Assembly: GCA_039714075.1 (NCBI GenBank)
Contig: JBDLKA010000029.1
Coordinates: 1-36,237 of the forward strand
Length of the DNA stretch: 36,237 nt
Direction: 5' to 3'
Origin: Candidatus Krumholzibacteriota bacterium
GTDB taxonomy: Bacteria > Krumholzibacteriota > Krumholzibacteriia > LZORAL124-64-63
The notes beneath the pieces were generated by a model. That model was not told where the DNA came from. It saw nothing but the letters and a program-made list of their open reading frames with translations, and did not search any database. The position numbers and the translations under genes were made by a program. Positions 4,816-20,558 of this stretch are shown piece after piece; position 1 is the first letter of the stretch; every line of letters begins with the position of its first letter.

Positions 4816-5627
4816 AAAGACCGCGGGCGGTCCAGGGTTATCTGATCGATATCGAAGGCGTGCTGGTGCGTGACAAACGCTATCAGCCCGTTCCCGGATC
4901 GGTGGACTGGATGACCTCCCTGGCCGCCACCGGTCGGCCTTTCTGCCTGGTCAGCAACAACACCACCCACCGTCCGGCGGAGTTGGTGGAGGACCTGGTC
5001 CGGGCGGGTTTTCCGGTGGATGAAAGCCGGCTAGTGGGGGCTTTGGGCCTGGGAATGAAATGGCTGCGCGAGAGGAACAAGCGGAAGATCCACTGGTTGG
5101 GAAGGGCGCGGCTGGGGGATTACTGGATCGAGGAAGGTTTTGAACTGGTGACCGACGGACCCTGCGACGCGGTGGTCCTGGGGGTCAATCCGGACCTGAC
5201 GATATCCGCCCTGGACAGGGTTCTGGGCCCGGTGCTGGATGATGGCGTGGATATCCTGTGCCTTCACCGCAACCAGTTCTATCTCGATGAAACAGGCCGC
5301 CGCCGCCTCGGTCCGGGGGCCTGGGCGGCTTCCCTGGAGGGTATCGGAGGGGCCGGACGCCTGGTCACCGTGGGCAAGCCTTCCCCTGCGATCTACCAGG
5401 AGGCCCTGAAAAGGGTTGGCATTGCCCCCGAAGAGGTCCTATTTATTTCGGATGATCCGGTGGCCGATCTGGTCACCGCCGGAAGGCTTGGAATGCGCAC
5501 CGCCTTTGTCCTGTCGGGGAAGTATCCCGACCATGGTGTTCTGGCCCGGCTCGAGGAAAACGACTGGCCCGACATCGTCTGCTCGCGAATGAGCGATATC
5601 GAAATACAGGAAGAGGAAACAGCTTGA
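4812..5627 (+). CDS. HAD-superfamily subfamily IIA hydrolase (NagD/LHPP-like phosphatase)
   Basis: Motif I LIDIEGVL, VSNNTT, GKPS, ISDDPVAD, VLSGKY. ATGA overlap with the upstream gene. Confidence 0.85.
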   Translation: MKRPRAVQGYLIDIEGVLVRDKRYQPVPGSVDWMTSLAATGRPFCLVSNNTTHRPAELVEDLVRAGFPVDESRLVGALGLGMKWLRERNKRKIHWLGRARLGDYWIEEGFELVTDGPCDAVVLGVNPDLTISALDRVLGPVLDDGVDILCLHRNQFYLDETGRRRLGPGAWAASLEGIGGAGRLVTVGKPSPAIYQEALKRVGIAPEEVLFISDDPVADLVTAGRLGMRTAFVLSGKYPDHGVLARLEENDWPDIVCSRMSDIEIQEEETA

Positions 5628-6742
5628 ATTCAGATGGACGTGACAACAACAGGAAACGGGGCGGCGGCCGACGGGGGTCCGGGCAAAAATCGTCCGGGCA
5701 AAAATCGTCTGGGTCAAGATCGTCCGGAACAAGGTCATCCGGGCAAAGGTCATCCGGTTCACGATCTTCAGGTCAGCGAACCTCCAGGCGGCGTTCCCCG
5801 GATTCCCGCTCGTCCGGATCCGGCCGAGCAGCTCGGGGACGGCCCTCCCGTGGCGGTAACGGGCGGCAGTCCCCACCATCGAGCCGGCCCGCGCCGGCCT
5901 CCGCGAGCCCCGTCACCACCAGCACGCAGGCCCTGACCCTGTCGGCCTGGGACATGGCGCGGACGCGCCGCCAATTGCCCGACACCCCGCGGGGCCAGGT
6001 CATGAACCTGCGCGCCCATCAGCGGCTGGTGGCCTCCTTTGAAAAGGAGCGCAAGATTCCCGATCCGGATCGCAGCGTGCTGAAGGTCAAGGAAGGTGCC
6101 AAGGGGTCCTGTCTGTTGATCCACGGCGTATCCACCCGCCCGGGAGACTTCAACGAATTGGCCGAGGTTCTTTTTGATTCCGACTACAACGTCTATGTCC
6201 TGCGGCTGCCGGATTACGGCACCCAGGGGCACACCATCAGCGAGGTCTCCTGGGAATCGGCCCTGTATCAGGCCCAGCAGTGCTACCAGCTTCTGTCCCG
6301 CGGCGGCGGCAAGGTGCACGTGGTGGGAATGGGCTTCGGGGCCACTTTGGCCCTGCTGCTGGCCCTCGAGGAAAGCGTGTCGTCACTGGTGCTTTTGTCT
6401 CCGGCCATCATGCCGCGCGAGTCCTTCTTCCAGCGCCTGCTGGTTCGCCTGAAACTCCACCGCCTGAAGTTGGTCCACAGTTGGCTGGGCTGGAACGCGG
6501 ATCTGATGGAAGGGATGGACAAGGCCCGGGGCAAGATCGGTCAGATTCGGGTCCCTGTTTTCGCGGCCCAGTGCGAGGACGACGACCGGGCATCTCCGGC
6601 ATCCCTGAGGGTTCTGCAGAACAAGTCGCGGAACAAGGCTTCGCGGTTCCAGATCTTCCCCCACGGGGGGCACGCCATTCTCACCGAACACGGCAAGGAT
6701 GTCCTGTACGACCAGATCCTTCAGTTCTGCGGGTCCGCCTAG
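5624..6742 (+). CDS. Alpha/beta-hydrolase fold protein (carboxylesterase-like) with disordered Ser/Gly/Arg N-terminus; catalytic Ser absent
   Basis: LLIHG, elbow VGMGFGA (normally GxSxG), LVLLSPA, acid EDDDR, His in GGHAIL. TTGA overlap with the HAD gene. Confidence 0.75.
   Translation: MNSDGRDNNRKRGGGRRGSGQKSSGQKSSGSRSSGTRSSGQRSSGSRSSGQRTSRRRSPDSRSSGSGRAARGRPSRGGNGRQSPPSSRPAPASASPVTTSTQALTLSAWDMARTRRQLPDTPRGQVMNLRAHQRLVASFEKERKIPDPDRSVLKVKEGAKGSCLLIHGVSTRPGDFNELAEVLFDSDYNVYVLRLPDYGTQGHTISEVSWESALYQAQQCYQLLSRGGGKVHVVGMGFGATLALLLALEESVSSLVLLSPAIMPRESFFQRLLVRLKLHRLKLVHSWLGWNADLMEGMDKARGKIGQIRVPVFAAQCEDDDRASPASLRVLQNKSRNKASRFQIFPHGGHAILTEHGKDVLYDQILQFCGSA
5677..5781 (+). repeat. Seven degenerate 15-bp tandem repeats encoding SSG(Q/S/T)(K/R)
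   Basis: GTCCGGGCAAAAATC x2, GTCTGGGTCAAGATC, GTCCGGAACAAGGTC, ATCCGGGCAAAGGTC, ATCCGGTTCACGATC, TTCAGGTCAGCGAAC. Confidence 0.85.
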
Positions 6743-6766: not shown

Positions 6767-7387
6767 TCAACCGGCCTGGTCGAAAAGAACGGCCAGGTCG
6801 AGGTCGCTCAGGACCGCACCCAGGCCGAGGCGACGCGTCGCCAGCACGCCCAGGACGTGGATGTAATCCTCGTAATTCCTTTCCAGTTTACGCAGGACCC
6901 GGGCCAGACCCGTGTTGGCGTCCGTCCCGGTCTCCATCAGGTTCGCCGCCATTCCATAGCAGCTGCGGCCGATGCCCAGGTCCCGGCGGCGGGTTTCCTC
7001 CGCGGTCATGCCGAAATGGACGCGGCGCCTGCGCAGGCCGTCCCCCCGGTTCATCAGGCCAAGGTAGAGCAGCCGGTGGTCGGCATTGACCCGGTACCGG
7101 TCCGCGCGCGAACGGCGGCCGAGCTCTTTTGCGGGCGGAAGCAGAACCGGGCCGGCGCCCCACTGCACCCGGGGGTCGTGACGCCCGGTCAGGAAATCCG
7201 CCAACAGGCCGCCCAGGTACACGTTGACATCCTCGTCGGCCCCGGCTCCATTGGTGGGGAACATGGATTCCCGGCGGGCCTCGAGAAGTTGTTCCATCAT
7301 GAAAAAACTCCAGGGCAGGGGCCCGGACCAGTCGGGAAAGAGGCCTCGGAAACAGGGCGATTCGACTTTGTTCAGTGTTTTCGGCAT
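6767..7387 (-). CDS. Hypothetical, predicted helical protein (~206 aa)
   Basis: Protein-like composition (DEDVNVYLGGLLADF...GIGRSCY...LERNYEDYIHVL). GGAAGGGA precedes ATG 7387, and the ORF extension to 7510 lies in AT-rich intergenic DNA. Confidence 0.65.
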   Translation of the reverse strand: MPKTLNKVESPCFRGLFPDWSGPLPWSFFMMEQLLEARRESMFPTNGAGADEDVNVYLGGLLADFLTGRHDPRVQWGAGPVLLPPAKELGRRSRADRYRVNADHRLLYLGLMNRGDGLRRRRVHFGMTAEETRRRDLGIGRSCYGMAANLMETGTDANTGLARVLRKLERNYEDYIHVLGVLATRRLGLGAVLSDLDLAVLFDQAG

Positions 7388-7444: not shown

Positions 7445-7746
7445 GACGAGTGCCGGAAAGCTAATTGTAATTGATTTGTTTTGAACGTGTTGCGTAGGTT
7501 GAGAAAACATGAAATTTGATTATCATTTTGATGGTGGGTGATTTTGTTCCATTGCCCGCGCCGCCGGGACCATTCCATCTTCATTTTGGGCTTTTGTTTC
7601 CCTGATATCAGCCGATCACACTCGGGAATATTTGCATGCGCCGGAAGCGGATCGGGGCGGACTCTGATGCCCTTCGGGGTTTGCGGCGTCTGGTGTCATC
7701 CGGGTAATCCGACCTTCGGGCGCTCCCAAGGTGAAAGGAACGGGGA

Positions 7747-9852
7747 ATGAGCGAGCAGGATCGTTTCGATTGGAATGACGACATGGAATTGGACTCCACC
7801 AACCCGGAGCAGGAGGACTTCGACGATTTCGAAGACCCTCTTGACGGGTTTGCGGACTACGATGACGTGTCCGGCTATGAAGACCTTTCCGAAATGGACG
7901 CTCCGACCTCGGGGGCCTCGGGCTCCGAAGAGAGTGCCGGGTCCGAAACGGCCGCGGCGGTGCCGGACGATATGGCGGAACAGAATGCCGCGGACGAAAC
8001 CAAGGCGACCGCCTTCGTCAAGAAGAAGCGGCGCCGGGGTATATCGGCCACCGGCCTGGGATTCCTGTTCACGGCTTCCATCCTGGTGGCCGGAGTGGGG
8101 GTCGGCGGGGCCATCCTGCTGGCCGAAGGCGTTCATCCGCGCACCTTGTGGCAGCCGGACAACCTGATGCAGGTCGACCAGTTGCTCAATTTCGCCGATC
8201 ATCCCTTGAACATCCTGTACATGGTCACCATGGGCATCGTCTTTTTGGCTTTGCTGGGCAGCTACAAGATGTCCCGGGCGGCGGTGGAGGCCAACCGACG
8301 CACCCTGGACGCCGAGAGCATGCTGGACCGCCTGACCGCCCTGGATCTGGACAACCAGAAACAGTGGCAGAGCCAGGAGTTCAAGGAGTTTCCTCCCGCC
8401 GAGGCTTTTGTGATCCGGACCCTGGGCGCCTGGCGTCTGCAGGAGGCCCGCCAGAAGCGGCTGATGGGTGTCGAGGGAGAACTCCACCGGCTCGAGAAGG
8501 CCCTGAACACGAATTCCCGCGAGGACTTGACCGGCCGCTTCGACCATCCCGCCGTGGGCCGCTTGTCCGATGAGATGGTCCGGTATTTCGACGCCCGGGA
8601 GGTGGCCGTCTCCAAGCTCCAGGACCACGAAAGCAAGGGCCACGAGAACACCGGTGAGATCCTGGACCTGTTGCAGAAATCCCGGCAGTGGAACGGCTCC
8701 ACTCTGGATCAACTTAGTGTCCAATGCGCCGCCCTGGATGAACTTTCGGGGCAGATGGACAATCTGGCCAGGCACATTGAAAAGGGTGCGGCCAAAACCG
8801 GAACCGGAACCCACGACAGCCTGACCGACATCATCGAAGCCATCCGCCGGGATCTCGACAACCGGACCACCGGTGGTGGAGCGGACGGCCAATCCTTGTC
8901 CGGGTTGAACGACCTGGTGGACAGGGGAAGCAAGCTGGCCTTCAAGATCGCCATGGAAGTGGCGCGCCTGGGGCCCCGCGGTGAACGGTTGCTGCCGATG
9001 AGCCAGTCCCTGGAAGACCTGACGACCGGTTTCCGCAAACTGGCCGACCGGGCGAACAACCAGGATGGCGACACCGGCCAGACCCCATCCTTCAGGAATG
9101 TCCACAAGAAGCTGGAAACCCTGGCGGCCCTGATTACCGAGGATGACCAGGCCCACCTGCGCGACCTGGCCGGGGAAGTCCCGGATTTCGGGCCGGCGGC
9201 GGCGAGGATTTCCAGCCAGCTGACCCGCATGGCCGATGGGTTCAACGAGCAGGAAGACCGGCTTGTCGGGATGGGCTCTTCCTTTGCGGAAATGACCGGC
9301 GCCGATTTCGATTCCACTTCGATTCCCCGTAAGGAATTGTCTGAGGCGCCGGTCGCTTCCCTGGATATCACCCGGGGCGGATCCCCGGCCAAGGAATCGG
9401 AACCGAGCGAATCCCCTGCGGAAATGGATCCTTTCGTTGCCTCGGATTCCCCTCTCATGTCCCCGGACGAAAAACCGGAGGACGCCGACTTGACGTCCCC
9501 GGTCCTTCCCGCTCCGGATGCCGATGGCCCGGCCAGGTTCAACCTGGATTCGGGCGATGCGGTGGATATGCCTCTTCCCGATGATGAGGAAAAGGTGTAC
9601 GATCTCGAGGAATTCGAAGCAGCCCCCGTCATGGAGCCGGAAGTCCAGGACACCGAAGAGGTGTTCGAGCTTTCCGATCTGGGTGGCGTTTCGATGGAGC
9701 AGGCGGCGGAACCAGACGCTGAAGAGGTTCACGATCTGGCCGAATTCGGAGCCATGCCCCTGGATCAGGCGGCGGTATCCGAGCCGGAGGAACCTGCTGA
9801 TGACGACATGGTCTACGACCTGGCGGATTTCAGCGCCAAGCCCCTGAATTGA
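7747..9852 (+). CDS. Two-TM membrane protein resembling a divergent methyl-accepting chemotaxis receptor, with acidic N- and C-terminal tails
   Basis: TM1 GLGFLFTASILVAGVGVGGAILLA after KKKRRR; TM2 ILYMVTMGIVFLALLGSY. HAMP-like DLTGRFDHPAVGRLSDEM. Coiled coil containing SKLAFKIAMEVARLGPRGERL...FRKLADR, similar to the MCP tip [21 protein letters not shown]...VRKLAER. CDS is secure; family call is moderate. Confidence 0.7.
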   Translation: MSEQDRFDWNDDMELDSTNPEQEDFDDFEDPLDGFADYDDVSGYEDLSEMDAPTSGASGSEESAGSETAAAVPDDMAEQNAADETKATAFVKKKRRRGISATGLGFLFTASILVAGVGVGGAILLAEGVHPRTLWQPDNLMQVDQLLNFADHPLNILYMVTMGIVFLALLGSYKMSRAAVEANRRTLDAESMLDRLTALDLDNQKQWQSQEFKEFPPAEAFVIRTLGAWRLQEARQKRLMGVEGELHRLEKALNTNSREDLTGRFDHPAVGRLSDEMVRYFDAREVAVSKLQDHESKGHENTGEILDLLQKSRQWNGSTLDQLSVQCAALDELSGQMDNLARHIEKGAAKTGTGTHDSLTDIIEAIRRDLDNRTTGGGADGQSLSGLNDLVDRGSKLAFKIAMEVARLGPRGERLLPMSQSLEDLTTGFRKLADRANNQDGDTGQTPSFRNVHKKLETLAALITEDDQAHLRDLAGEVPDFGPAAARISSQLTRMADGFNEQEDRLVGMGSSFAEMTGADFDSTSIPRKELSEAPVASLDITRGGSPAKESEPSESPAEMDPFVASDSPLMSPDEKPEDADLTSPVLPAPDADGPARFNLDSGDAVDMPLPDDEEKVYDLEEFEAAPVMEPEVQDTEEVFELSDLGGVSMEQAAEPDAEEVHDLAEFGAMPLDQAAVSEPEEPADDDMVYDLADFSAKPLN

Positions 9853-9853
9853 T

Positions 9854-9906
9854 TTCCGGTCCGGTGGGTCGAGGCCCGGGCCGAGGCCCAAGCCACCGGA
9901 TCGGGA
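9854..9906 (+). promoter_or_regulatory. 14-bp intergenic stem-loop covering the start region of the next gene
   Basis: 9854-9867 TTCCGGTCCGGTGG pairs with 9893-9906 CCACCGGATCGGGA (two G:U). No U-tail. Sits between stop 9852 and ATG 9908. Confidence 0.55.
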
Positions 9907-9907
9907 C

Positions 9908-10888
9908 ATGAACGGTTTGAATCAGAGCGAAATCGGCCCCGGCCAACTGGCCGATTATCTGGCGGAACTGCTGCAGCGGTTCCGCCATTTTTGTGGGACG
10001 CTCGAAGCCGTTCCCGGGATGGCTTCGCATCTGGCGCGCCTCAAGGTATCCGCCCGGCTGCTGGGTGCGGTGGCACGGCCCACCGAACCGGGCGGCGATG
10101 ATTTTACCAGGCTTGGCGGGGTTCTGGGCGAATGGGTGACCTGTTTCGAATCCTCGCCCGAATCATTCCCCCACCATCTGAATCATCCCTTTGAACGATT
10201 GGCCGACTACCTGGAGGAAATCCTGGCCGGAAGAGACCAGGGTGTTACGGCTGCCGTGTTGGCCGCCGATGGAGGCTGGGGCGCAGCGGTGGCCTCCTTT
10301 CGGAACGCGGGCACGCCGCTGGCCGTCCTGGAGGAGATTGATGACCAACTCCGCAGGTGGCAGGGCCGCTGGACGGAGGACAGCCTGACCCCCGTCCAGG
10401 AGCAGCAACTGCACCGCCGCTGGCTGAGTCTGAGAAAAAAGGGGGATGTCCTGTTCGGGGTTGTCGCAGCCGATCCTGCCGGAGTTGCCGGTCGCCAGGG
10501 ATCCGCGGACGGCGTCCCGGTATACCTGTTGCTGGTGGACAGTGGGTTTCGCCGGGATCAGATCAGGGAAAAACTCGCTCACCATGATTACCGGGTCGAA
10601 ATCCCCTGTGACCCCACCCAGGCCCTCGAGTTCCTGGCTGCCGGTCCGCCGCCCCGGGCGGTTCTGTGTGACAATCTGGAACCCACCCGGTACCTGGCCG
10701 GAGTGAGGGACGGCCTGTCGGCCCGGAGCGGTATGGTGTCGGTGCCCCTGGTTCTGGTCGTCGGAAGTTCCTCCGGCGGTTCGGCGGGATTGCAGAGGGC
10801 CCGGTCTCTGGGTGCGGCCGGCGCCTGGGGGGAACCCTACGACCCCGGCGACCTCCACCGCATATTGCAACGCCTTTCTCAGCCCTGA
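9908..10888 (+). CDS. Atypical response-regulator receiver protein with N-terminal helical (Hpt-like) region
   Basis: C-terminal REC pattern YLLLVD...ALEFL...AVLCD...VPLVLV...ARSLGAAG..GEPYD..DL. N-terminal LARLKVSARLLG resembles Hpt AHTLKGSAxxLG. Confidence 0.7.
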   Translation: MNGLNQSEIGPGQLADYLAELLQRFRHFCGTLEAVPGMASHLARLKVSARLLGAVARPTEPGGDDFTRLGGVLGEWVTCFESSPESFPHHLNHPFERLADYLEEILAGRDQGVTAAVLAADGGWGAAVASFRNAGTPLAVLEEIDDQLRRWQGRWTEDSLTPVQEQQLHRRWLSLRKKGDVLFGVVAADPAGVAGRQGSADGVPVYLLLVDSGFRRDQIREKLAHHDYRVEIPCDPTQALEFLAAGPPPRAVLCDNLEPTRYLAGVRDGLSARSGMVSVPLVLVVGSSSGGSAGLQRARSLGAAGAWGEPYDPGDLHRILQRLSQP

Positions 10889-10998
10889 GGTATCCTGCAC
10901 AGCCGGGCGGCATCCGACGATTCCCTCCAATTCCCGATGATTCCTGTTAAAGCCCTGGAAAAATGGGTTTTCCACCGTTTTGCCGCCACCCGGCAGGT

Positions 10999-11014
10999 GG
11001 GCATGGGAGTTGCA
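10999..11014 (+). promoter_or_regulatory. Candidate sigma-54 (-24/-12) promoter
   Basis: GGGCATGGGAGTTGCA closely matches TGGCAYRNNNNTTGCW. Intergenic, about 74 nt upstream of ATG 11088. Confidence 0.55.
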
Positions 11015-11087
11015 AGTTTCCCATATCGTGATGTGGCACGCATCGCAACTTGAACTCGAGAGAGAATCTAAGAAGGAGACATCCTCA

Positions 11088-11306
11088 ATGGCTGACTACA
11101 ATGATTCTTCCAGGATTTTCATCGGCGGAGAAGACAATTACGGTCAGGTGATGACCTCGGTCGAGGCCGCCGAATACCTGAAAATGCACGTCAAGACCGT
11201 GTGCCGCCTGGCAAAAGAAGGCAAAATCCCGGCCAAAAAGGTCGGCAGCGAATGGCGCTTCCTGCGTTCGGTCCTGGACCGGTGGCTGACCGAAACCCTG
11301 GTCTGA
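11088..11306 (+). CDS. Small HTH_17 (excisionase/BldC-like) DNA-binding protein, 72 aa
   Basis: VMTSVEAAEYLKMHVKTVCRLAKEGKIPAKKVGSEWRF. AAGGAG precedes ATG 11088; the ORF track's 10980 start is unlikely. Confidence 0.9.
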   Translation: MADYNDSSRIFIGGEDNYGQVMTSVEAAEYLKMHVKTVCRLAKEGKIPAKKVGSEWRFLRSVLDRWLTETLV

Positions 11307-11309
11307 TAC

Positions 11310-13556
11310 ATGGCCACACGGTTCAATCCCCTCAACCTCACTAGTCCGCGCCTGTTCGGCATCGGGCTGTCGGGCATCATCGGCCGCTCGGACAAGAGCA
11401 ACCTGCTCGATCTGGCCGACCGCTGCCTGAAAAAGGGAAAGGTCCACCTGATTCTGGATCTTTCCGGGCTCTCTTCCATGGGTGGCGGCGGCGCGGTCAT
11501 ACTCGCCGATTTCCAGCGTCGCTTGAACTCGGAGGGGGGCGAGGCGGTTTTCGTGGGTGCGGGGGAAGTGATCCGTCATTTCCTAGAGCTGAAGTTCGAG
11601 GATCTGCCGTTGCGGTTCTTCGGAACGGTTCCCGAGGCCGAAGAGGATCTGGCCGGAGCAGCTTCCGAACCGGCGGAACCGGCATCCGCTCCTGAAACTG
11701 AAAGTGAGCCCCCCGAGACGGCCGTTTCCCCGGTTGATGACAAGCCGGCAAAAAGCCCGCAAAAGAAATCGGCAGCGAAAGCGCCGGCGGCCAAGAAGTC
11801 CGGCGAAGCCCTGTCGGCCATGAACGAGGTTCTCGAGGAGTTCAACGGGCCTGCCGAGGAGGCTTCAGTCCGCCTGGGCCGGCGCAAGGACCATCAGTAT
11901 ACCTCTTTGGCCGAGGCGGTGGGTTCCCTGGGCAGTTGGACCGAGTACAAGGACCATTCCGATTACGCGGCCACCCTGCGCAACCTCCTTTTCAGCCACG
12001 GACTGGCTGAGGATGCCCATTTCCTGGTGGAACGGGAAGACATGATGGAGGATCCCGACCAGGAATGGCAACTGCCCATCGGTTGTTCACTGGTTCGCCA
12101 GCTGGAACAGGTGGGCACGCCCCTGACCATGCTGGACCTCCAGGAAGACGAACTGGAAGAGGACGAGGTTTGCCTGCTGGAGGAGATCAATCCCCAGATC
12201 ATCCTGCCGGTCATCCGTCAGGAAAAACTGGCGGCCATCCTCCTTCTCAATCGCGGGGGCGAGGAAAACGAGTACTCCGTCGCCGAACACTTCGCCCTGG
12301 AGTTGTTGCTGCAGATCCTGGAAAAAGGCGGGGACGCGGGTGCACCGGTCCCGGCCGGTGCCGACAATGCGGCCGCCGATTCCCCGGGAGGTCCGGATTC
12401 CGCCGGGCGCGGTCCGGAGGAAAACACCCTGCCGGATTCCTGGTCGCTACCCGAGGCTGACGACAGCGCGACGGCCAAGGTCCTGCTGACCCTGGCCCTG
12501 AATCTTCCCGACGCCGACGACCGTCCCCATTTCTGGAGGCTGTTCGCCAGGCACAGCTGGCCGGCCCTGCCGGTGCGCCACCTGGCGATCCTGGGTCCCG
12601 AGATGATGCGGCCCCAGGTCATGGTCGGGCGACATAGCCATTGGGAAAGCCTGGATCTGAGCAACCAGAAGATCCGCCAGTATTTCAGCAAGATGCAGCG
12701 CCCGGTCGAGACGGACAACATTCCGGCCACCTTCAAGTCCGTCAAGAATCGCCTCGCCGATTGCCAGGCTGACTGGATCGTCAATCTCAATTGGGAGGGC
12801 GAGTCCCTGGGAACGGCCATTCTCGGTCTTGACGAGGACTTCACCTGCGATGACCCGGAAGATCGGATCACTCAGATTTTCGGTGAGACGGCCAGGCTGC
12901 TGGCCCGGTTCGACGACAACAACGACAATGCCGACGGCAACCTGCATCTGGTCCGGATCCTGGTCGCGCAACGGGAAAAACGCTGTTTCGGCCACGACAA
13001 GCTGACCCAGGCGATCGTCGACCATGTCCACCGGCTGGCCCGGGTCATGGGTTTCCCGCCGGATCAGGAGCGGAGCCTTACCTACGGCTGCCTGCTGCGG
13101 GACATCGGTTTGCTGGACAAGGATGACGATCTGATGAAGCCGCCCGAGGAGATGGACCCGACCCAGTGGCCGGTGTACCGCCGCCATCCGGCCGACGGCG
13201 CCAAGCTTCTGGAGGGCCTCAACCTGCCCCAGACCATCGTGGATGTGGTTCATTGCCACCACGAACGGTTCAACGGGGAAGGGTTCCCCCGCGGACTGGA
13301 GGGGCGGGATATTCCCCTGGCCGCGCGGGTGGTGACGGTGGTGGAAAACTACGTCGCCATGGTCACCGGCACCAGCAGTCATGAACCCATCGCGCCGACG
13401 ACGGCCGCCCGGATATTGCGGGACAACCTGGGCCAGCGCTATGATCCGGATATCGTGGGTCTGTTCCTGGACGCCATATTGGGGGAAGGGGATCCTCCCC
13501 AGGAGAAAAAGCCCCGCAAGAAATCGGCAATCCGGAAAGTTCTGCAGAAGGCCTAA
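11310..13556 (+). CDS. STAS + GAF-like + degenerate HD-GYP domain protein
   Basis: N-terminal STAS (LILDLSGL...GGEAVFVG). GAF-like ILPVIRQEKLAAILLL. C-terminal LLRDIG, HPADGAKLL, HHERFNGEGFPRGLEGRDIPLAARVV, YDPDIV. Confidence 0.85.
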   Translation: MATRFNPLNLTSPRLFGIGLSGIIGRSDKSNLLDLADRCLKKGKVHLILDLSGLSSMGGGGAVILADFQRRLNSEGGEAVFVGAGEVIRHFLELKFEDLPLRFFGTVPEAEEDLAGAASEPAEPASAPETESEPPETAVSPVDDKPAKSPQKKSAAKAPAAKKSGEALSAMNEVLEEFNGPAEEASVRLGRRKDHQYTSLAEAVGSLGSWTEYKDHSDYAATLRNLLFSHGLAEDAHFLVEREDMMEDPDQEWQLPIGCSLVRQLEQVGTPLTMLDLQEDELEEDEVCLLEEINPQIILPVIRQEKLAAILLLNRGGEENEYSVAEHFALELLLQILEKGGDAGAPVPAGADNAAADSPGGPDSAGRGPEENTLPDSWSLPEADDSATAKVLLTLALNLPDADDRPHFWRLFARHSWPALPVRHLAILGPEMMRPQVMVGRHSHWESLDLSNQKIRQYFSKMQRPVETDNIPATFKSVKNRLADCQADWIVNLNWEGESLGTAILGLDEDFTCDDPEDRITQIFGETARLLARFDDNNDNADGNLHLVRILVAQREKRCFGHDKLTQAIVDHVHRLARVMGFPPDQERSLTYGCLLRDIGLLDKDDDLMKPPEEMDPTQWPVYRRHPADGAKLLEGLNLPQTIVDVVHCHHERFNGEGFPRGLEGRDIPLAARVVTVVENYVAMVTGTSSHEPIAPTTAARILRDNLGQRYDPDIVGLFLDAILGEGDPPQEKKPRKKSAIRKVLQKA

Positions 13557-13583: not shown

Positions 13584-13624
13584 AGTGTCCCACCTCATGA
13601 TCGAGAGGTGGGACACTTTTTATT
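13584..13624 (+). terminator. Rho-independent terminator
   Basis: 13-bp perfect stem AGTGTCCCACCTC / GAGGTGGGACACT, 8-nt loop, then TTTTATT. Confidence 0.85.
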
Positions 13625-14003: not shown

Positions 14004-15083
14004 ATGTCCAGCACCTTCGGCAGATTATTCAGGGTCACGACCTTCGGCGAGTCCCATGGCGGAGGTGTCGGCGTGGTGGTGGACGGTTGTCCTCCCGGGC
14101 TGGCCTTGACCACTGCCGATGTGCAGGGCCAGTTGGACCGCCGCCGTCCGGGTCAGGGTCCTTTGACCACGGACCGGAAGGAGTCCGACACCGTGGAATT
14201 CCTCTCGGGCATCGAGAAGGGTCTGACCCTCGGCAGCCCGCTTGCCCTGCTGACCCGCAACCGGGACATCAAGCCGGAAGACTATTCCAGCCTCGATGAT
14301 ATTCCGCGGCCGTCCCACGCGGATTTCACGACCCAGGCCAAATACGGCATCCGTTCTTCCAGCGGAGGAGGAAGGGCCAGCGCCCGGGAAACCTGGGCTC
14401 GTGTGGCGGCCGGAGCGGTGGCGGAAAAATGGTTGGCCGCTGAATTCGGTGTCATGATTGTCGCCTGGGTGGACAGTGTCGGGGAAGAGGGTCCCGCCGG
14501 CGTGGACCCCGGTTCGGTAACCCGCGACATGGTGGATGCGACGGCCATTCGCTGCCCTGACCAGCCCCTGGCCAAGGCCATGGAAAAGGTCGTCAAGGCG
14601 GCCCGGAAGGATCGGGATTCGGTTGGCGGCGTTGTTTCCTGCGTTTGCCGGGGTGTACCGGCGGGCTGGGGCGAACCGGTTTTCGACAAGATGGAAGCCC
14701 TGCTGGCCCAGGGTATGCTGTCGATACCCGCGGCCAAGGGATTCGAAATCGGATCGGGTTTCGGGGGCGCCCGGCAACGGGGCTCGGTCCACAACGATCC
14801 GTTTGTCCAGAAGCAGGAAGGGCTGGGCACTCTTACCAATAACAGCGGCGGCGTGCAGGGTGGCATCACCAACGGGGAACCGATCGTGTTCCGCGTGGCC
14901 TTCAAACCGCCGGCCACCATCGGCATCGCCCAGCAAACGGCCGACTTTTCCGGTTCGGAAACCACCCTGGAAGCCCGTGGCCGCCACGATCCCTGCGTGG
15001 TCCCCCGGGCGGTCCCCATCGTCGAGGCCATGACGGCCCTGGTCCTGGCGGACCTGGCGCTGATTCAACGCGCGCGCGGGTGA
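14004..15083 (+). CDS. aroC: Chorismate synthase
   Basis: [49 protein letters not shown]. Confidence 0.97.
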
Positions 15084-15092
15084 CGGCCGGTC

Positions 15093-16127
<1,035 letters not shown>

Positions 16128-16130
16128 TTC

Positions 16131-16937
16131 CTATTCCTTTCCCGCAGACATCGCCGCGTTCATTTCCGTCAGGAACCCGGCGGCGGCTGCCACGGCCGCG
16201 GGGCCGGAGCCGGCGGCATCGATGGTACGGATCAGGGCACTGCCGACCACGGCGCCATCGGCGCAGGCGGCGACCCTGGCGGCCTGGGCGGGTTCGGCGA
16301 TGCCGAAACCCACGTAGAGAGGCAGGGGGTTGGCCCGGCGGACCCGGGCGACGTAATCCTCGAGGTTGTCTCCGGTTCCCGGCGCCGATCCCGTGACACC
16401 GGTGGTCGAGACCAGATACAGGAATCCGCCGGCGGCCGCCGCGTGTTCGGTCAGGCGGTTCTGGTCGGTTGTAGGAGCCACAAGGTCCACCAGATCCGTA
16501 TCCCGCGCCAGCAGGAGGTCCCGCAGTTCAGCGGATTCCTCCAGCGGCAGGTCCGGCACGATGACTCCGGCCACCTGGGCCTCGCCGCAGGCCTCGGCAA
16601 AAACCGGGAGTCCCATTTTCAGGAGGGGATTCAGGTATCCCATCAGAACCACGGTCAGATCGTGTTCTCTTGACGCCCGTGCGGCCAGGGCCAGGGTCCT
16701 GGTGAGGGTCATTCCCTGTTCCAGAACCTTCTGGGAAGCCGCCTGGATGACCGGTCCGTCGGCCACCGGGTCGCTGAAGGGAATCCCGATTTCCACCAGG
16801 GAGCATCCCGCGTCGGCGGCGGCGCCCATGACGCCCGCGAAGGTTTCGGGATCCGGGTAGCCCGCGGTCAGGAAGGGGACCAGGGGTTTGCGGCCTTCGG
16901 TGCGCAGACGTTGGGTCAAGGATGATAGACGGGTCAT
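16131..16937 (-). CDS. trpA: Tryptophan synthase alpha chain
   Basis: [53 protein letters not shown]. Confidence 0.97.
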
Positions 16938-18118
16938 GCCGGCACCTCCGGGGGATCCACGCTGTCCTTGTCGCCGCGGCCGGAAAGATTGACGATTATC
17001 ACGGCCTTGGTGTCGGAGGATCCGGCCAGGTCCCGGGCATAGGCCAGGGCATGGCTCGATTCCAGGGCGGGAATGATCCCTTCGAGCCGGGCCAGATCGG
17101 TGAAGGCCCGCAGGGCCTGGTCATCGGTCACCGAGGTGTAGGTGACACGCCCGGTGTCTTTCAGGTGGCTGTGCTGGGGACCGACCCCGGGATAGTCCAG
17201 ACCCGCGGCGACGGAGTGGGCGGGCAGGACCTGGCCGTCGTCGTCCTGAAGCAGATAACTGAAAGACCCGTGCAATACCCCGGGTTCACCCAGGCAGAGC
17301 GCGGCGGAGTGGCCGGCGTCCGATCCTCCGGCTTCCACCCCGTACAGGGCCACCGCGTCGTCCAGGAAGGCGGAAAAGATGCCGATGGCATTGCTGCCCC
17401 CGCCGACGCACGCCACGACAGCGTCGGGCAGTCGTCCCGCGGCCGCCAATATCTGTCGCCGGGCTTCCCGGCCGATCACCGCCTGGAAGTCGCGCACCAT
17501 GGTGGGATAGGGGTGGGGGCCGACGGTCGAGCCGATGATGTAATGGGTCCCTTCCACGTTGGCGACCCAGTCGCGGATGGCTTCGCTGGTGGCGTCCTTC
17601 AGGGTACGGCAGCCGGTGCCCACCGGAACCACCCGGGCGCCCAGCAGACGCATTCGGCGCACGTTGGGTTCCTGGCGCTCCATGTCCACTTCGCCCATGT
17701 AGACCGTACACTCCAGGCCCATGAGGGCGGCCACCGTGGCCGAGGCGACACCGTGTTGCCCGGCGCCGGTTTCGGCCACGATCCGTTTCTTGCCCATGCG
17801 TTCGGCCAGCAGGACCTGGCCCAGGCAGTTGTTGATCTTGTGGGCCCCGGTGTGGTTCAGGTCCTCACGCTTGAGATAGATATGGGCCCGCCCCCCGAAG
17901 TCCTTTTCGAGACGCCGGGCCCGATACAGGGGAGTGGGCCGGCCCGAATAGTCGGCCAGCAGTTCGGCAAAGGCGTCCTGAAAGCCGGGATCCTTTTGCG
18001 CCCTGTGATATTCGGCTTCGAGTTCCCGCAGGCAGGGCATGAGGGTTTCGGGAACGAACTGGCCGCCGAATTCGCCAAAGCGGCCCGCACCGCCGCCGCC
18101 GGAAGTCCTGGAATTCAT
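16934..18118 (-). CDS. trpB: Tryptophan synthase beta chain
   Basis: [16 protein letters not shown] (PLP Lys), [33 protein letters not shown]. Confidence 0.97.
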
Positions 18119-19506
18119 GAAGTCGCCTCCCTGATGAAGTCCTGAAGGGCCGCAAGGTCCTTGCGGCCGGGCTCGCTTTCCACTCCGCCGGACACGTCCA
18201 CGCCGAAGGGGGCGCAGTCACGTACTGCTTCGGCCACGTTGGCTGGATCCAGGCCCCCGGCCAGAAACACGTCCCGGCCTGCGGCCCGGATCATGGCGGC
18301 GGCCTGCCGTAAAGCCTGGTGATCGCAGGATTCGGGATCACCCTTGGGCCGGTCGATCAGGAAGTAGGCCGCCGCATCGTAGGCGGCCACCCGGGCCGGG
18401 GTAGCTTCAGCGGGGCGCAGGGCCTTGATCAACGGTAAACCGGTAGCCTCGGCCAACTGCCGGCACTCGCCTGGTGATTCGTTGCCGTGCAACTGGATCA
18501 GGTCGAGTCCGCAGCTCTCGGCCGCAGCCATGACCTCTGCCGGGTCGGCGTCCTGGAAGACCCCGCACAGCCGGGCGTCGGGTACGGATGCCCTGATGGC
18601 GGCGGCCTGACGGTTGTCGACCCGCCGGGGGCTCGAAGCGAAGATCAACCCCAGCAGGTGGGCCCCCGCCTCGAAGGCGGCCCGGGCGTCGGCGGGGTTG
18701 GTCAGACCACAGATCTTTATGCGCCGGGCTTCTTCGGAAACTTTTCCCGCCAGTTCGGCGACCTTGCGTCCGGGGTCCCGGCTCAGGAGCAGGGCGTGCC
18801 CCACAAGAAAGGCGTCGGCGCCGGCCCGGCTCATACGGTCCACATCCCGGCGGCAGTCGAGGCCGCTTTCGCTGACCCGTATTACATCCCGGCCCACCAG
18901 CGGCAGCAGGTTTTCGCCATGGGCGAGATCGGTGGTCAGGGTGGCCAGGTTGCGGTTGTTGATCCCCACCAGCGTGGCGCCGGCCTGGAGGGCCTGCTCG
19001 ATTTCGTCGGCCGCGTGGCATTCCACCAGAACAGACAGACCGAGGGATGTGGCCTCGTTGTGGAGGTCCCGCAGTGAACCGCGGTCGAGCATGCGCGCGA
19101 TCAGCAGGATCGCGTCGGCCCCGGCGGCCCAGGCCGCATGGATCTGGGACCGGTCGATAACGAAGTCCTTCACCAGAACGGGCAGGTCGGCCGCCGTGCG
19201 CAGGGCGGCCACATCATCGAGGGAGGTTCCGAAATGGGTGGCGTCGGTCACGATGGACAAGGCTCTCGCGCCTCCCCGGCGATAGGCCCGGGCAAGGTTG
19301 CCCACCGGTCCCAGGCGTTGGAGGGAGGGATTGCTGGGCGATTGACGTTTGATCTCGGCGATGATACTTCCACCACCGGCTAACGCGGCCCTGAAATCCC
19401 GCACGGGCATATCGGCTGGGCGCACCGGGGGCGAGGTTTGGAATTGCCGGTTGAGGGCGGCCGCTTCGGCTTCCTTGGCGGGCCGGATCCGTTCCAGAAA
19501 ACTCAT
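18115..19506 (-). CDS. trpCF: Bifunctional indole-3-glycerol-phosphate synthase / phosphoribosylanthranilate isomerase
   Basis: [24 protein letters not shown] and SESG (TrpC) are in frame with IKICGLT, QLHGNE, LAGGL and GVDVSGGVE (TrpF). True start MSFLERI at 19506 overlaps the trpD stop. Confidence 0.93.
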
Positions 19507-20558
19507 GACGCCACCCCCTGCTGGGAGGCAGCCGCGAAAGCGGCCAGAAGGTCGGCGGTCCTGCCGGAGGCGATGGCGTCCCGGGCCAGATCCACACCGG
19601 TCCTGACGTTGTCGGCCAAACCTCCCAGCACCGCCGCGAAGCCGGCGTTGAGAAGGACGGCATCGGTTTTGGGACCGCTCTTGCCGCCGAAAATATCCTT
19701 GATGATGGCCGCGTTGGCTGCCGGATCCCCTCCGGAAAGATCGTCCGGTCCGCAGGTTCGAAGTCCGGCCTGTGCGGGCAGGAACTCGAAGGTGCGCACC
19801 TTGCCGTCCTCCAGGGCCGCCACGGTGGTGGCACCCAGCAGAGAGACTTCGTCGAGCCCGCCCTCTCCGTGCACCACGAAAGCCCTTTGGGAGCCCAGCT
19901 CCCGCAGCACGCGGCACAGGGGTTCGCACAGGGTCGGATCGAATACCCCCAACAGCTGGCGGTCGGCTCCCGCAGGGTTGGTCAGGGGACCGAGCACGTT
20001 GAATACCGTCCGGACACCCAGCTCCCGCCGGACGGGCATGGCGTGCTTCATGGCGGGATGCAGGCCGGGCGCGAAGAGGAAGCCGATCCCTATTTCATCG
20101 ATGAGTGCGGCCACCCGACCGGGCTCCAGGTCCAGGTTCACGCCCAGGGCCTCGAGCACGTCGGCGCTGCCGCAGCGTGAACTGACCGCCCGGTTGCCGT
20201 GTTTGGCCACGGGGATGCCCATTGAGGCAGCCACCAGGGCGGTGGCGGTGGAGATGTTGAAGGTGCCGCTGCCGTCACCGCCGGTGCCGCAGGTGTCCAG
20301 CAGGCCGGATTTTCCGGGGCTGATGCGCAGCGCCCCGTTCCGCATGGCCCGGGCGAAACCGGCGATCTCGGCAACGGTCTCTCCCTTGGCGCGCAGGGTG
20401 GCCAGGATACCCGCCAGGCGGAAGGGAGGAACCTGTCCCGCCATGATTGCTTCCATCAGCGCGACGGCCTGTTCCTGCGGCAGATCCCGGCCTTCCAGCA
20501 GGGAAGTCAGGATGGCGGCCGAGTCGACGGTGGACCGATGACTACCGGTCTGTTCCAT
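19503..20558 (-). CDS. trpD: Anthranilate phosphoribosyltransferase
   Basis: DTCGTGGDG..TFNIST, KHGNRAVSSRCGSAD, RTVFNVLGPLTNPA, GLDE. Start MEQT at 20558 follows GGAGGT. Confidence 0.95.
   Translation of the reverse strand: MEQTGSHRSTVDSAAILTSLLEGRDLPQEQAVALMEAIMAGQVPPFRLAGILATLRAKGETVAEIAGFARAMRNGALRISPGKSGLLDTCGTGGDGSGTFNISTATALVAASMGIPVAKHGNRAVSSRCGSADVLEALGVNLDLEPGRVAALIDEIGIGFLFAPGLHPAMKHAMPVRRELGVRTVFNVLGPLTNPAGADRQLLGVFDPTLCEPLCRVLRELGSQRAFVVHGEGGLDEVSLLGATTVAALEDGKVRTFEFLPAQAGLRTCGPDDLSGGDPAANAAIIKDIFGGKSGPKTDAVLLNAGFAAVLGGLADNVRTGVDLARDAIASGRTADLLAAFAAASQQGVAS

Follow-up and report, generated by a model that had tools for sequence, protein, structure and literature searches.

Can a chemosensory-type pathway persist across a bacterial phylum after the residues that carry its chemistry have been lost? 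The question is raised by a four-gene locus of Candidatus Krumholzibacteriota. The window, meaning here the whole stretch of DNA that was analysed, is 36,237 nucleotides long (contig JBDLKA010000029.1, C29 below) and comes from a 4.06-Mb metagenome-assembled genome (MAG) that is 92% complete. Between positions 7747 and 13556 it carries four co-oriented open reading frames (ORFs): a membrane protein resembling methyl-accepting chemotaxis proteins (MCPs), a remnant of a CheA-receiver hybrid, a small helix-turn-helix (HTH) protein, and a STAS-GAF protein ending in a degenerate HD-GYP domain. Judged from sequence comparison, the best explanation of the locus is that it derives from an "alternative cellular function" (ACF) chemosensory pathway and has been inherited vertically throughout Krumholzibacteriota; its signalling probably depends on protein binding, not on chemistry. 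A preliminary description of this DNA had proposed that the four genes form one phosphorylation-independent module, which we consider reasonably probable.

Organization of the locus

The four frames have no internal stops and are followed by a hairpin, as the preliminary description had stated.

7747 to 9852, plus strand: ORF1, MCP-like membrane coiled-coil protein of 701 residues (profile match to the MCP structure 2ch7)
9908 to 10888, plus strand: ORF2, 326 residues, pseudo-CheA/receiver remnant
11088 to 11306, plus strand (frame open from 10980): ORF3, 72-residue DNA-binding protein of the HTH_17/excisionase type (HTH_17 4.4e-14; TIGR01764 1.1e-12)
11310 to 13556, plus strand: ORF4, STAS, GAF region and degenerate HD-GYP, 748 residues, starting 3 nt past the ORF3 stop
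13584 to 13617, plus strand: hairpin resembling an intrinsic terminator, with a 13-bp stem, 8 G-C pairs and then a T-run

Conservation and selection

The order ORF1-ORF2-ORF3-ORF4 is kept from the genus to class-level relatives. In 20 loci of relatives found by tblastn it is constant, with ORF3 and ORF4 in 20 each, ORF1 in 15 and ORF2 in 13, and the module usually lies behind an alpha/beta hydrolase gene and a divergent gene. The same order holds in 80 further loci from blastp (counts of 80 for ORF3, 73 for ORF4, 69 for the hydrolase, 54 for the divergent gene, 52 for ORF1 and 40 for ORF2), so that synteny in relatives, which the preliminary description had named as a check, is found. These related loci are MAG-derived; 31 of the 80 carry the submitter label Candidatus Krumholzibacteriota, Krumholzibacteriia or Krumholzibacteriia bacterium, and other labels include "uncultured Fibrobacteraceae", "bacterium", two Gemmatimonad and one Latescibacteria. 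Of 201 genomes sampled from the phylum, 189 have a single ORF3 orthologue (E<=1e-22; identity 72-97%); among the 125 of high quality the figure is 124. Four loci are reduced (L084, at 8223-9197, L090, L092 and L096): they comprise the hydrolase gene, ORF3 and then about 325 residues of STAS plus the first GAF-like part, and lack ORF1, ORF2 and the HD-GYP domain. HTH protein and STAS/GAF therefore constitute the minimal conserved pair.

Within the genus, all 8 genomes have intact reading frames. Ratios of nonsynonymous to synonymous substitution (dN/dS; pairwise Nei-Gojobori, genus only, with dS of 0.5-1.4 and thus close to saturation in some pairs) are 0.21-0.29 for ORF1, 0.22-0.32 for ORF2, 0.03-0.09 for ORF3 and 0.14-0.18 for ORF4, compared with 0.12-0.17 for the neighbouring aroC. 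The four genes are thus under purifying selection and are maintained, not decaying. Taken with the substitutions described below, the degeneracy of the module is, on the comparative evidence, both ancient and maintained.

ORF1, a remote relative of chemoreceptors

ORF1 combines a membrane region, a conserved tip and repeated C-terminal peptides.

8038 to 8268, plus strand: two hydrophobic segments (residues 98-130 and 152-174; Kyte-Doolittle score above 1.6 in 19-residue windows) with a loop of about 20 residues between them
8902 to 9021, plus strand: tip-like region, residues 386-425, containing LVDRGSKLAFKIAMEVARLGPRGERLLPM, the best-conserved part of ORF1 and in register with the MCP hairpin tip
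9595 to 9831, plus strand: four tandem acidic-aromatic tails, VYDLEEF (617), VFELSDL (639), VHDLAEF (661) and VYDLADF (689), from a regular-expression scan

Both ends of the protein are acidic, with 30 Asp and Glu against 8 Lys and Arg in the N-terminal 100 residues and 43 against 4 in the last 142. A profile of 42 ORF1 orthologues matches the cytoplasmic domain of the T. maritima MCP (2ch7) at E 1.6e-5, and the tip LAFKIAMEVARLGPRGERLLPM falls in register with it (longer aligned stretch, LVDRGSKLAFQIAMEVARLGPRGERLLPM). Near-invariant tip columns among the 42 sequences are E404, V405, R407, L408, G409, G412, E413, L415 and P417. The canonical motif through which MCP tips contact CheA and CheW is absent: the window reads K-I-A-M-E-V-A-R-L-G-P-R-G-E-R-L-L-P-M, and the standard tip residues are invariant in nine canonical MCPs of relatives. 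Deviation at the MCP tip, claimed earlier, is therefore confirmed, though all MCP matches lie below the Pfam cut-off. The window protein itself gives no Pfam match over threshold and no MCPsignal match at E<=1; among the 42 family members 6 match MCPsignal at E<=1 (best 1.3e-4), and the syntenic ORF1 genes of distant relatives reach 23.6-26 bits, under the 34.6-bit cut-off of PF00015. We read ORF1 as a remote MCP derivative whose tip is family-specific, not canonical.

The tail motif ([VI][YFH][DE]L.[DE][FL]) is present in 1-6 copies in 50 of 51 orthologues, the exception being a truncated ORF. Tails occur also where ORF2 lacks a receiver, so the receiver cannot be their sole partner.

A 737-residue ORF on the minus strand (7696-9909), antisense to ORF1, was considered as a real gene and rejected as a shadow ORF of G+C-rich DNA, because conserved orthologues and a dN/dS below 0.3 belong to the plus-strand frame.

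ORF2, a reduced CheA-receiver hybrid

In the AlphaFold model of ORF2 (pLDDT 86.8), eight helices make up the N-terminal part, and an alpha/beta domain forms the C-terminus. The window protein gives no Pfam match over threshold and contains neither HATPase_c nor a CheW-like (P5) domain.

9908 to 10468, plus strand: N-terminal helical-bundle domain, residues 1-187 (AlphaFold pLDDT 85.8 and pTM 0.80 when modelled alone)
10511 to 10885, plus strand: pseudo-receiver, residues 202-326, with D211-S212, D255, V285 and E309-P310-Y311 (fold and profile searches)

The receiver assignment is supported by fold and profile alike. Its CheY-like fold aligns to 8phn with a VIA Z of 14.9 (rmsd 2.7 over 120 residues), Foldseek gives 1.2e-5 to 3dgf, and the profile search against PDB gives 1.2e-9. 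The acceptor aspartate is kept as D255, the lysine position is E309 and the threonine position V285, exactly the Lys/Thr deviation described earlier, and the phosphorylation quintet of PF00072 is incomplete. In the alignment of 33 orthologues the receiver domain (REC) is carried by 22 and absent from 11. All 22 have the acceptor aspartate and a W-x-x-P-[FYW] motif; none has the lysine (E in 13, P in 4, D in 3, A in 2), the second acidic position is Ser in 21, and 5 have T or S at the Thr/Ser position.

The N-terminal domain had been described as an Hpt domain with a deviant histidine, a claim that is not confirmed. Whole-model fold searches returned receivers, and the N-terminus was searched separately. 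Its profile finds no Hpt domain in PDB, only designed helical proteins (best E 1.2e-4); its model has no Foldseek match at E<=1e-3; VIA places designed bundles first (Z 7.2), with no Hpt or CheA-P1 domain among the best 50 matches listed; and no column of a 27-sequence alignment reaches 40% His. With no Hpt likeness found by profile or fold, a deviant histidine cannot be assigned.

The origin of ORF2 is suggested by the gene in the same slot of class-level relatives, which is 530-830 residues long. Pfam CheW scores over its cut-off in four of these long forms (L114, L115, L116, L118), HATPase_c matches weakly (E 0.001-0.016), Response_reg matches at up to 1.5e-13, and one long orthologue has a weak Hpt match (E 0.03). 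A profile of 13 long forms finds CheA P4-P5 in PDB (2ch4, 4jpb) at 3.3e-11. In an alignment with three canonical CheAs of relatives, whose four CheA domains are Pfam-confirmed, the long forms are missing the N box, the G1-box GRG and all of the F-box/lid segment; YPGLRxxR replaces the canonical GRGVGMD, and the CheW-like domain can be aligned throughout. Their receivers are also without the acidic pair (NQ, NS, EQ or VA instead). Short and long forms are linked by hhalign, at 99% probability for the receiver and 97-98% for the N-terminal domain (E 1e-12 and 4e-10). ORF2 therefore represents a further reduced form of an already kinase-dead CheA-receiver hybrid. Judging from these alignments, the kinase and CheW-like domains are deleted in the window lineage and are degenerate already in distant relatives.

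A strong terminator-like hairpin lies inside the 5' end of ORF2 at 9960-9987 (12-bp stem, 8 G-C pairs, then TTTTTGTGGG), overlying the conserved LAELLQRFRHF codons.

ORF4, a STAS-GAF protein with a degenerate HD-GYP domain

Full-length orthologues of ORF4 share 75-82% identity in the genus and 36-52% in the family. Three regions can be distinguished.

11367 to 11639, plus strand: STAS domain, with GGGG at residues 58-61 (Pfam STAS 5.7e-7)
11862 to 12953, plus strand: central GAF-like region, residues 185-548 (GAF_2 in orthologues)
12963 to 13454, plus strand: degenerate HD-GYP domain with R597-D598, H626, H650-H651-E652, N655, G658-F659-P660 and E679 (HD_5 3.7e-25)

The STAS domain scores 29.7 bits against a PF01740 cut-off of 22.6, and 15.6 against the 53.45 required by NCBIfam ant_ant_sig. 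G58-G61 align to D56-S57-S58-G59 of SpoIIAA (1auz), in which S58 is the phosphorylated serine. The loss of the STAS serine, also noted in the preliminary description, holds, with weak PDB E-values (0.0032-0.22). For the central region, 18 of the 35 orthologous segments match GAF_2 (best E 1.1e-10). The window copy gives no match at E<=1, and a search of this region against PDB sequences returned nothing below E 1.

The HD-GYP domain is clear at family level (HD_5, PF13487, 89.1 bits against a cut-off of 27.2) and altered at its catalytic HD dyad and acidic ligands. RDIGL aligns to HDIGK of the solved proteins 5z7c, 4r8z, 4mcw and 3tm8, which upholds the change from HD to RD; the lysine after HDIG is also replaced (L601). 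HHERFNGEGFP stands against HHERxDGxG[YF]P, having N for D and F for Y, and the DxxDA stretch aligns to ENYVA (E679, V682). Many orthologues retain GYP, and the cyclic di-GMP (c-di-GMP) phosphodiesterase 4r8z also has GFP. At the HD histidine, 64 aligned orthologues have Arg in 63, Cys in 1 and His in none; HHE, H626 and E679 are kept in nearly all.

In all nine distant loci considered, a second HD-GYP gene lies directly behind the ORF4 orthologue (for example L114 11319-12866, L116 1134-2684, L118 12765-14720, L026 11938-13614). Its motifs are canonical (LHDIGK; HHExxDGxGYP, with N for D in one of the nine; ADxFDAMT), whereas the ORF4 orthologues of the same loci read LRDIGM, HHERFNGEGYP and VVESY. 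Since the neighbouring paralogue is canonical, the substitutions in ORF4 are paralogue-specific and ancient. The second gene is absent from the window, where aroC takes its place.

ORF3 and its sigma-54-type promoter

The start of ORF3 is most likely the ATG at 11088, behind an AGGAG Shine-Dalgarno sequence and at the point where orthologues begin. The protein exceeds the cut-offs of PF12728 (52.9 bits against 27) and TIGR01764 (48.1 against 28.8). An alignment of 34 sequences places 36 of the 72 residues in invariant columns, essentially the whole HTH core. The preliminary description had called it BldC-like: its character as a small stand-alone HTH_17/excisionase-type protein stands, and membership of the BldC subfamily does not, with 16.8 bits against the 77 of NF033787 and only two matches in PDB, 6amk and 6ama (E 0.7-0.9), which we take to be BldC.

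Upstream of ORF3 lie three conserved elements.

11000 to 11014, plus strand: sigma-54-type promoter GGCATGGGAGTTGCA, with -24 GG/-12 GC spacing, at a conserved position in relatives
10890 to 10900, plus strand: conserved block GTATCCTGCAC directly after the ORF2 stop (41 of 74 loci have TATCCTGCA ahead of the promoter)
11025 to 11046, plus strand: conserved leader element ATCGTGATGTGGCACGCATCGC between promoter and ORF3 start (TGTGGCAC in the leader of 33 of 74 loci)

Among the 80 loci whose upstream DNA is long enough, 74 carry the pattern GGCA[CT]N5TTGC[AT] at a distance of 60-88 nt before the ORF3 ATG (misses: L097, L099, L102, L103, L107 and L109; L100 is not evaluable). It matches once in the 36-kb window, where shuffled sequence gives 0.26 matches on average. 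Another pattern, TGGCAC N4-6 TTGC, has no match in the window, because the site reads GGGCAT, and an own-genome pattern with a leading T has none either. The block at 10890-10900 is a candidate upstream activator site, and the leader element might fold into a 6-bp hairpin or act as an operator. The genome encodes sigma-54 (rpoN, contig C3) and at least 17 strong enhancer-binding proteins (Sigma54_activat, E<=1e-60); the locus itself encodes no activator. Given the conserved promoter, ORF3-ORF4 constitute a transcription unit of their own. The possible split into two units at 10889-11087, raised in the preliminary description, is in this respect substantiated.

Chemotaxis genes elsewhere in the genome

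As described earlier for the window, cheA, cheW, cheR and cheB are missing there: contig C29 contains none of the families searched (CheW, CheR, MCPsignal, H-kinase_dim, CheB_methylest). The suggested survey of the whole genome, 92% complete, gave no MCPsignal, H-kinase_dim or CheB_methylest match and found an orphan CheW and an orphan CheR. The CheW (168 residues) lies beside an HDOD protein of 289 residues on contig C71 (G000:C71:10308-11733; locus L113, 6308-7733). The genus has one CheW in 8 of 8 genomes and MCPsignal in 0 of 8. Where relatives have a full che operon, CheA and CheW are neighbours of the HDOD orthologue, so the CheW-HDOD pair is an operon leftover. The CheR (274 residues, Pfam CheR 6.1e-43) lies on contig C85 (G000:C85:8877-9701; locus L123, 4878-5702), with nitroreductase, radical-SAM and FGE-sulfatase genes as neighbours.

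Proposed mechanism and alternative explanations

The locus encodes no kinase domain, its receiver lacks the lysine and the Mg-binding pair, its STAS domain lacks the phospho-serine and its HD-GYP domain lacks the HD histidine; from this we infer a signal carried by binding and conformational change. ORF1 would serve as a scaffold in the membrane, holding ORF2 and perhaps the orphan CheW by its invariant tip and its peptide tails, and its conformational signals would be relayed through protein-protein binding, not His-Asp phosphotransfer. ORF4 would be a sensor pseudo-enzyme: its STAS domain would bind a partner, and its GAF region and RD-GYP pocket a small molecule or cyclic dinucleotide. In this way it may set the availability or activity of ORF3, and so the access of ORF3 to DNA; in relatives it may also control the adjacent canonical HD-GYP phosphodiesterase. 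Expression of ORF3-ORF4 would be gated by a sigma-54 activator encoded outside the locus. The idea of a repurposed chemosensory/c-di-GMP cassette, put forward earlier, is thereby retained in part: residues are lost and the genes maintained, and the MCP relative, the pseudo-receiver and the STAS-GAF-HD-GYP protein are found, and the Hpt component is not confirmed. A bolder version, which we regard as doubtful, is an obligately non-enzymatic machine, in which an MCP-like lattice, its peptide tails and a pseudo-CheA adaptor would act purely through conformational coupling and, jointly with a STAS-GAF-pseudo-HD-GYP sensor, would control ORF3 as a phylum-signature master DNA-binding protein.

Several points weigh against a single, purely binding-based module. 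No member of the ORF1 family reaches the MCPsignal gathering score, so the relationship is remote, and hhalign of ORF1 with the nine canonical MCPs of relatives gives the same register (E 3.2e-4) at a probability of only 38.8%. Hpt likeness of the ORF2 N-terminus was found neither by profile nor by fold. A serine aligns to SpoIIAA S58 in 7 of 64 ORF4 orthologues. Some chemistry is possible, given the invariant acceptor aspartate of the pseudo-receiver and the HHE, His and Glu ligands kept in HD-GYP. The contacts among the four proteins are predicted ones, and a complex prediction for ORF4 with ORF3 (score 0.00, mark 0.32) is neutral on binding. ORF3-ORF4 have their own promoter and, together with the reduced loci, this means that the two halves may work independently. 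Throughout, the proposal is built on MAGs and sequence-level data.

The most serious alternative is a live possibility if an unlikely one: two functionally separate, merely syntenic units, a chemosensory relic (ORF1-ORF2) and a sigma-54-controlled regulator pair (ORF3-ORF4) whose input is an enhancer-binding protein and a small-molecule ligand, not ORF1 or ORF2. It accounts for the conserved promoter that separates ORF2 from ORF3 (74 of 80 loci), for the 17 or more strong enhancer-binding proteins, for the wider distribution of ORF3 (80/80 loci; 189/201 genomes) than of ORF1 (52/80) and ORF2 (40/80), and for the four loci with hydrolase, ORF3 and STAS/GAF only. However, the gene order is constant from genus to class-level relatives, the low counts of ORF1 and ORF2 are due in part to how quickly these genes diverge and to what blastp can detect at 25-35% identity, and coupling a chemosensory cluster to a c-di-GMP output is a well-known arrangement, as in Wsp.

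We think it improbable that the module is still enzymatic in a non-canonical manner, the RD-GYP domain converting a nucleotide messenger through a reduced metal site and D255 being phosphorylated by a kinase encoded elsewhere. Such chemistry would fit the aspartate in 22 of 22 REC-bearing sequences, the invariant or near-invariant H626, H650, H651, E652 and E679, and the GFP of the solved c-di-GMP phosphodiesterase 4r8z. Yet the HD histidine is absent from 64 of 64 orthologues, the lysine after HDIG and the DxxDA aspartates are replaced, the adjacent paralogue of relatives retains all of these residues, which makes the differences specific, and the receiver has Lys in 0 of 22 and Ser at the second acidic position in 21 of 22. 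That the genes are functionless, decaying remnants, pseudogenes in the making, is scarcely credible: the loss of hallmark residues in all domains and of canonical MCPs and CheA from the genus would suit it, but frames are intact in all eight genus genomes, dN/dS of 0.03-0.32, similar to aroC, excludes recent decay, and the same substitutions are fixed phylum-wide (Arg at the HD histidine in 63 of 64 orthologues), so that the conservation data already contradict it.

Flanking genes

Upstream of the module lie the two conserved neighbours counted above.

5624 to 6742, plus strand: alpha/beta hydrolase gene (Pfam Hydrolase_4 9.9e-13; homologue in 69 of 80 loci)
6767 to 7387, minus strand: divergent conserved gene, about 206 residues from an internal ATG, the longest ORF extending to 7510 (homologue in 54 of 80 loci)

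The hydrolase begins with about 90 low-complexity residues rich in Ser, Gly and Arg (SGQKSSG/SRSSG repeats). The divergent gene matches no Pfam family, an Atlas search led to unnamed clusters only, and its dN/dS is 0.14-0.18 (genus, Nei-Gojobori). In some class-level relatives a CN_hydrolase gene (Pfam about 1e-41) is located between the divergent gene and the MCP-like gene (L114 4187-4981, L116 8774-9580). Downstream, 14004-19929 encodes aromatic amino-acid enzymes: chorismate synthase, DAHP synthase, trpA, trpB and a fused IGPS-PRAI. The adjacency of aroC to ORF4 is limited to the genus (7 of 80 loci).

Comparison with known systems

Wsp-type ACF systems of Pseudomonas comprise WspA (an MCP), WspE (a CheA-receiver hybrid) and the c-di-GMP output WspR. 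In layout, such clusters appear to be the nearest known systems. The gene of an MCP-like membrane protein stands beside that of a CheA-receiver hybrid, as seen in the long forms of relatives, and the neighbouring output protein comes from a c-di-GMP enzyme family. In contrast to Wsp, the cluster has no CheW, CheR or CheB; the CheA homologue is without ATP-binding boxes and in the window is cut to an N-terminal bundle and a pseudo-receiver; the output is STAS-GAF-HD-GYP with RD for HD, not a REC-GGDEF cyclase; and the locus includes a tiny HTH gene behind a sigma-54 promoter.

In the solved-structure set, the best sequence match of the ORF4 C-terminus is the Vibrio 3'3'-cGAMP phosphodiesterase V-cGAP3 (5z7c), at 1.3e-16 for the HD-GYP module, with a second region of the same chain matching weakly. 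V-cGAP3 keeps HDIGK and DGxGYP, whereas ORF4 has RDIGL and NGEGFP and, in addition, the N-terminal STAS and GAF regions. With STAS proteins of the partner-switching type (SpoIIAA, RsbV; 1auz, 4hyl, 2ka5, 8ih8) ORF4 aligns over the beta3-alpha2 region. Unlike them it has GGGG in place of the D-S-S-G stretch and fuses STAS to GAF and HD-GYP, and the locus encodes neither an anti-sigma kinase nor a PP2C phosphatase. ORF3 resembles BldC and the small MerR/excisionase-type HTH proteins in being about 70 residues long with little beyond HTH_17; it differs in a 20-residue N-terminal extension and in a near-invariant HTH core specific to this group of MAGs.

In logic, the nearest system is PA2573/PA2572 of P. 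aeruginosa. There the orphan MCP PA2573 binds the receiver of PA2572 (REC-YN-GYP) in a REC-dependent manner in two-hybrid assays, and the degenerate HD-GYP domain of PA2572 shows no detectable c-di-GMP hydrolysis; no CheA is involved (PMC3411652). The two systems share an MCP-type sensor paired with an adjacent HD-GYP variant. For PA2573/PA2572 the signal appears to pass through direct protein contact, whereas the contacts in the present module are deduced from the genes. Further differences are that the receiver of PA2572 is fused to YN-GYP (PMC3411652) and that of the module resides on a separate CheA-derived protein, that the degenerate RD-GFP domain of the module is fused to STAS and GAF, and that the module is phylum-wide and includes an HTH protein.

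On these comparisons the module is distinct from known systems in its pseudo-CheA, its STAS-GAF fusion, its dedicated HTH protein behind a sigma-54 promoter and the phylum-wide fixation of every degenerate site. No description of it was found in open-access literature text, a coverage that leaves subscription journals and supplements outside.

Significance for the phylum

Pseudo-enzymes and pseudo-receivers are known singly. Here the loss of hallmark chemistry extends over a whole chemosensory-type pathway, from receptor tip and kinase to receiver, STAS switch and HD-GYP phosphodiesterase, yet purifying selection has kept the pathway across an uncultured phylum, beside a small DNA-binding protein that is among the most conserved there. 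ORF3, together with its sigma-54 promoter, can serve as a sequence signature of that phylum. The graded intermediates, long pseudo-CheA forms with a CheW-like domain and short forms without it, show how such systems are dismantled and rewired. If the parts work together, the locus would be a natural signalling array that transmits information only by binding. Should the obligately non-enzymatic version prove true, the module would be a core cellular control circuit of Krumholzibacteriota, governing the cell cycle, the envelope or a lifestyle switch, and not an accessory sensory pathway.

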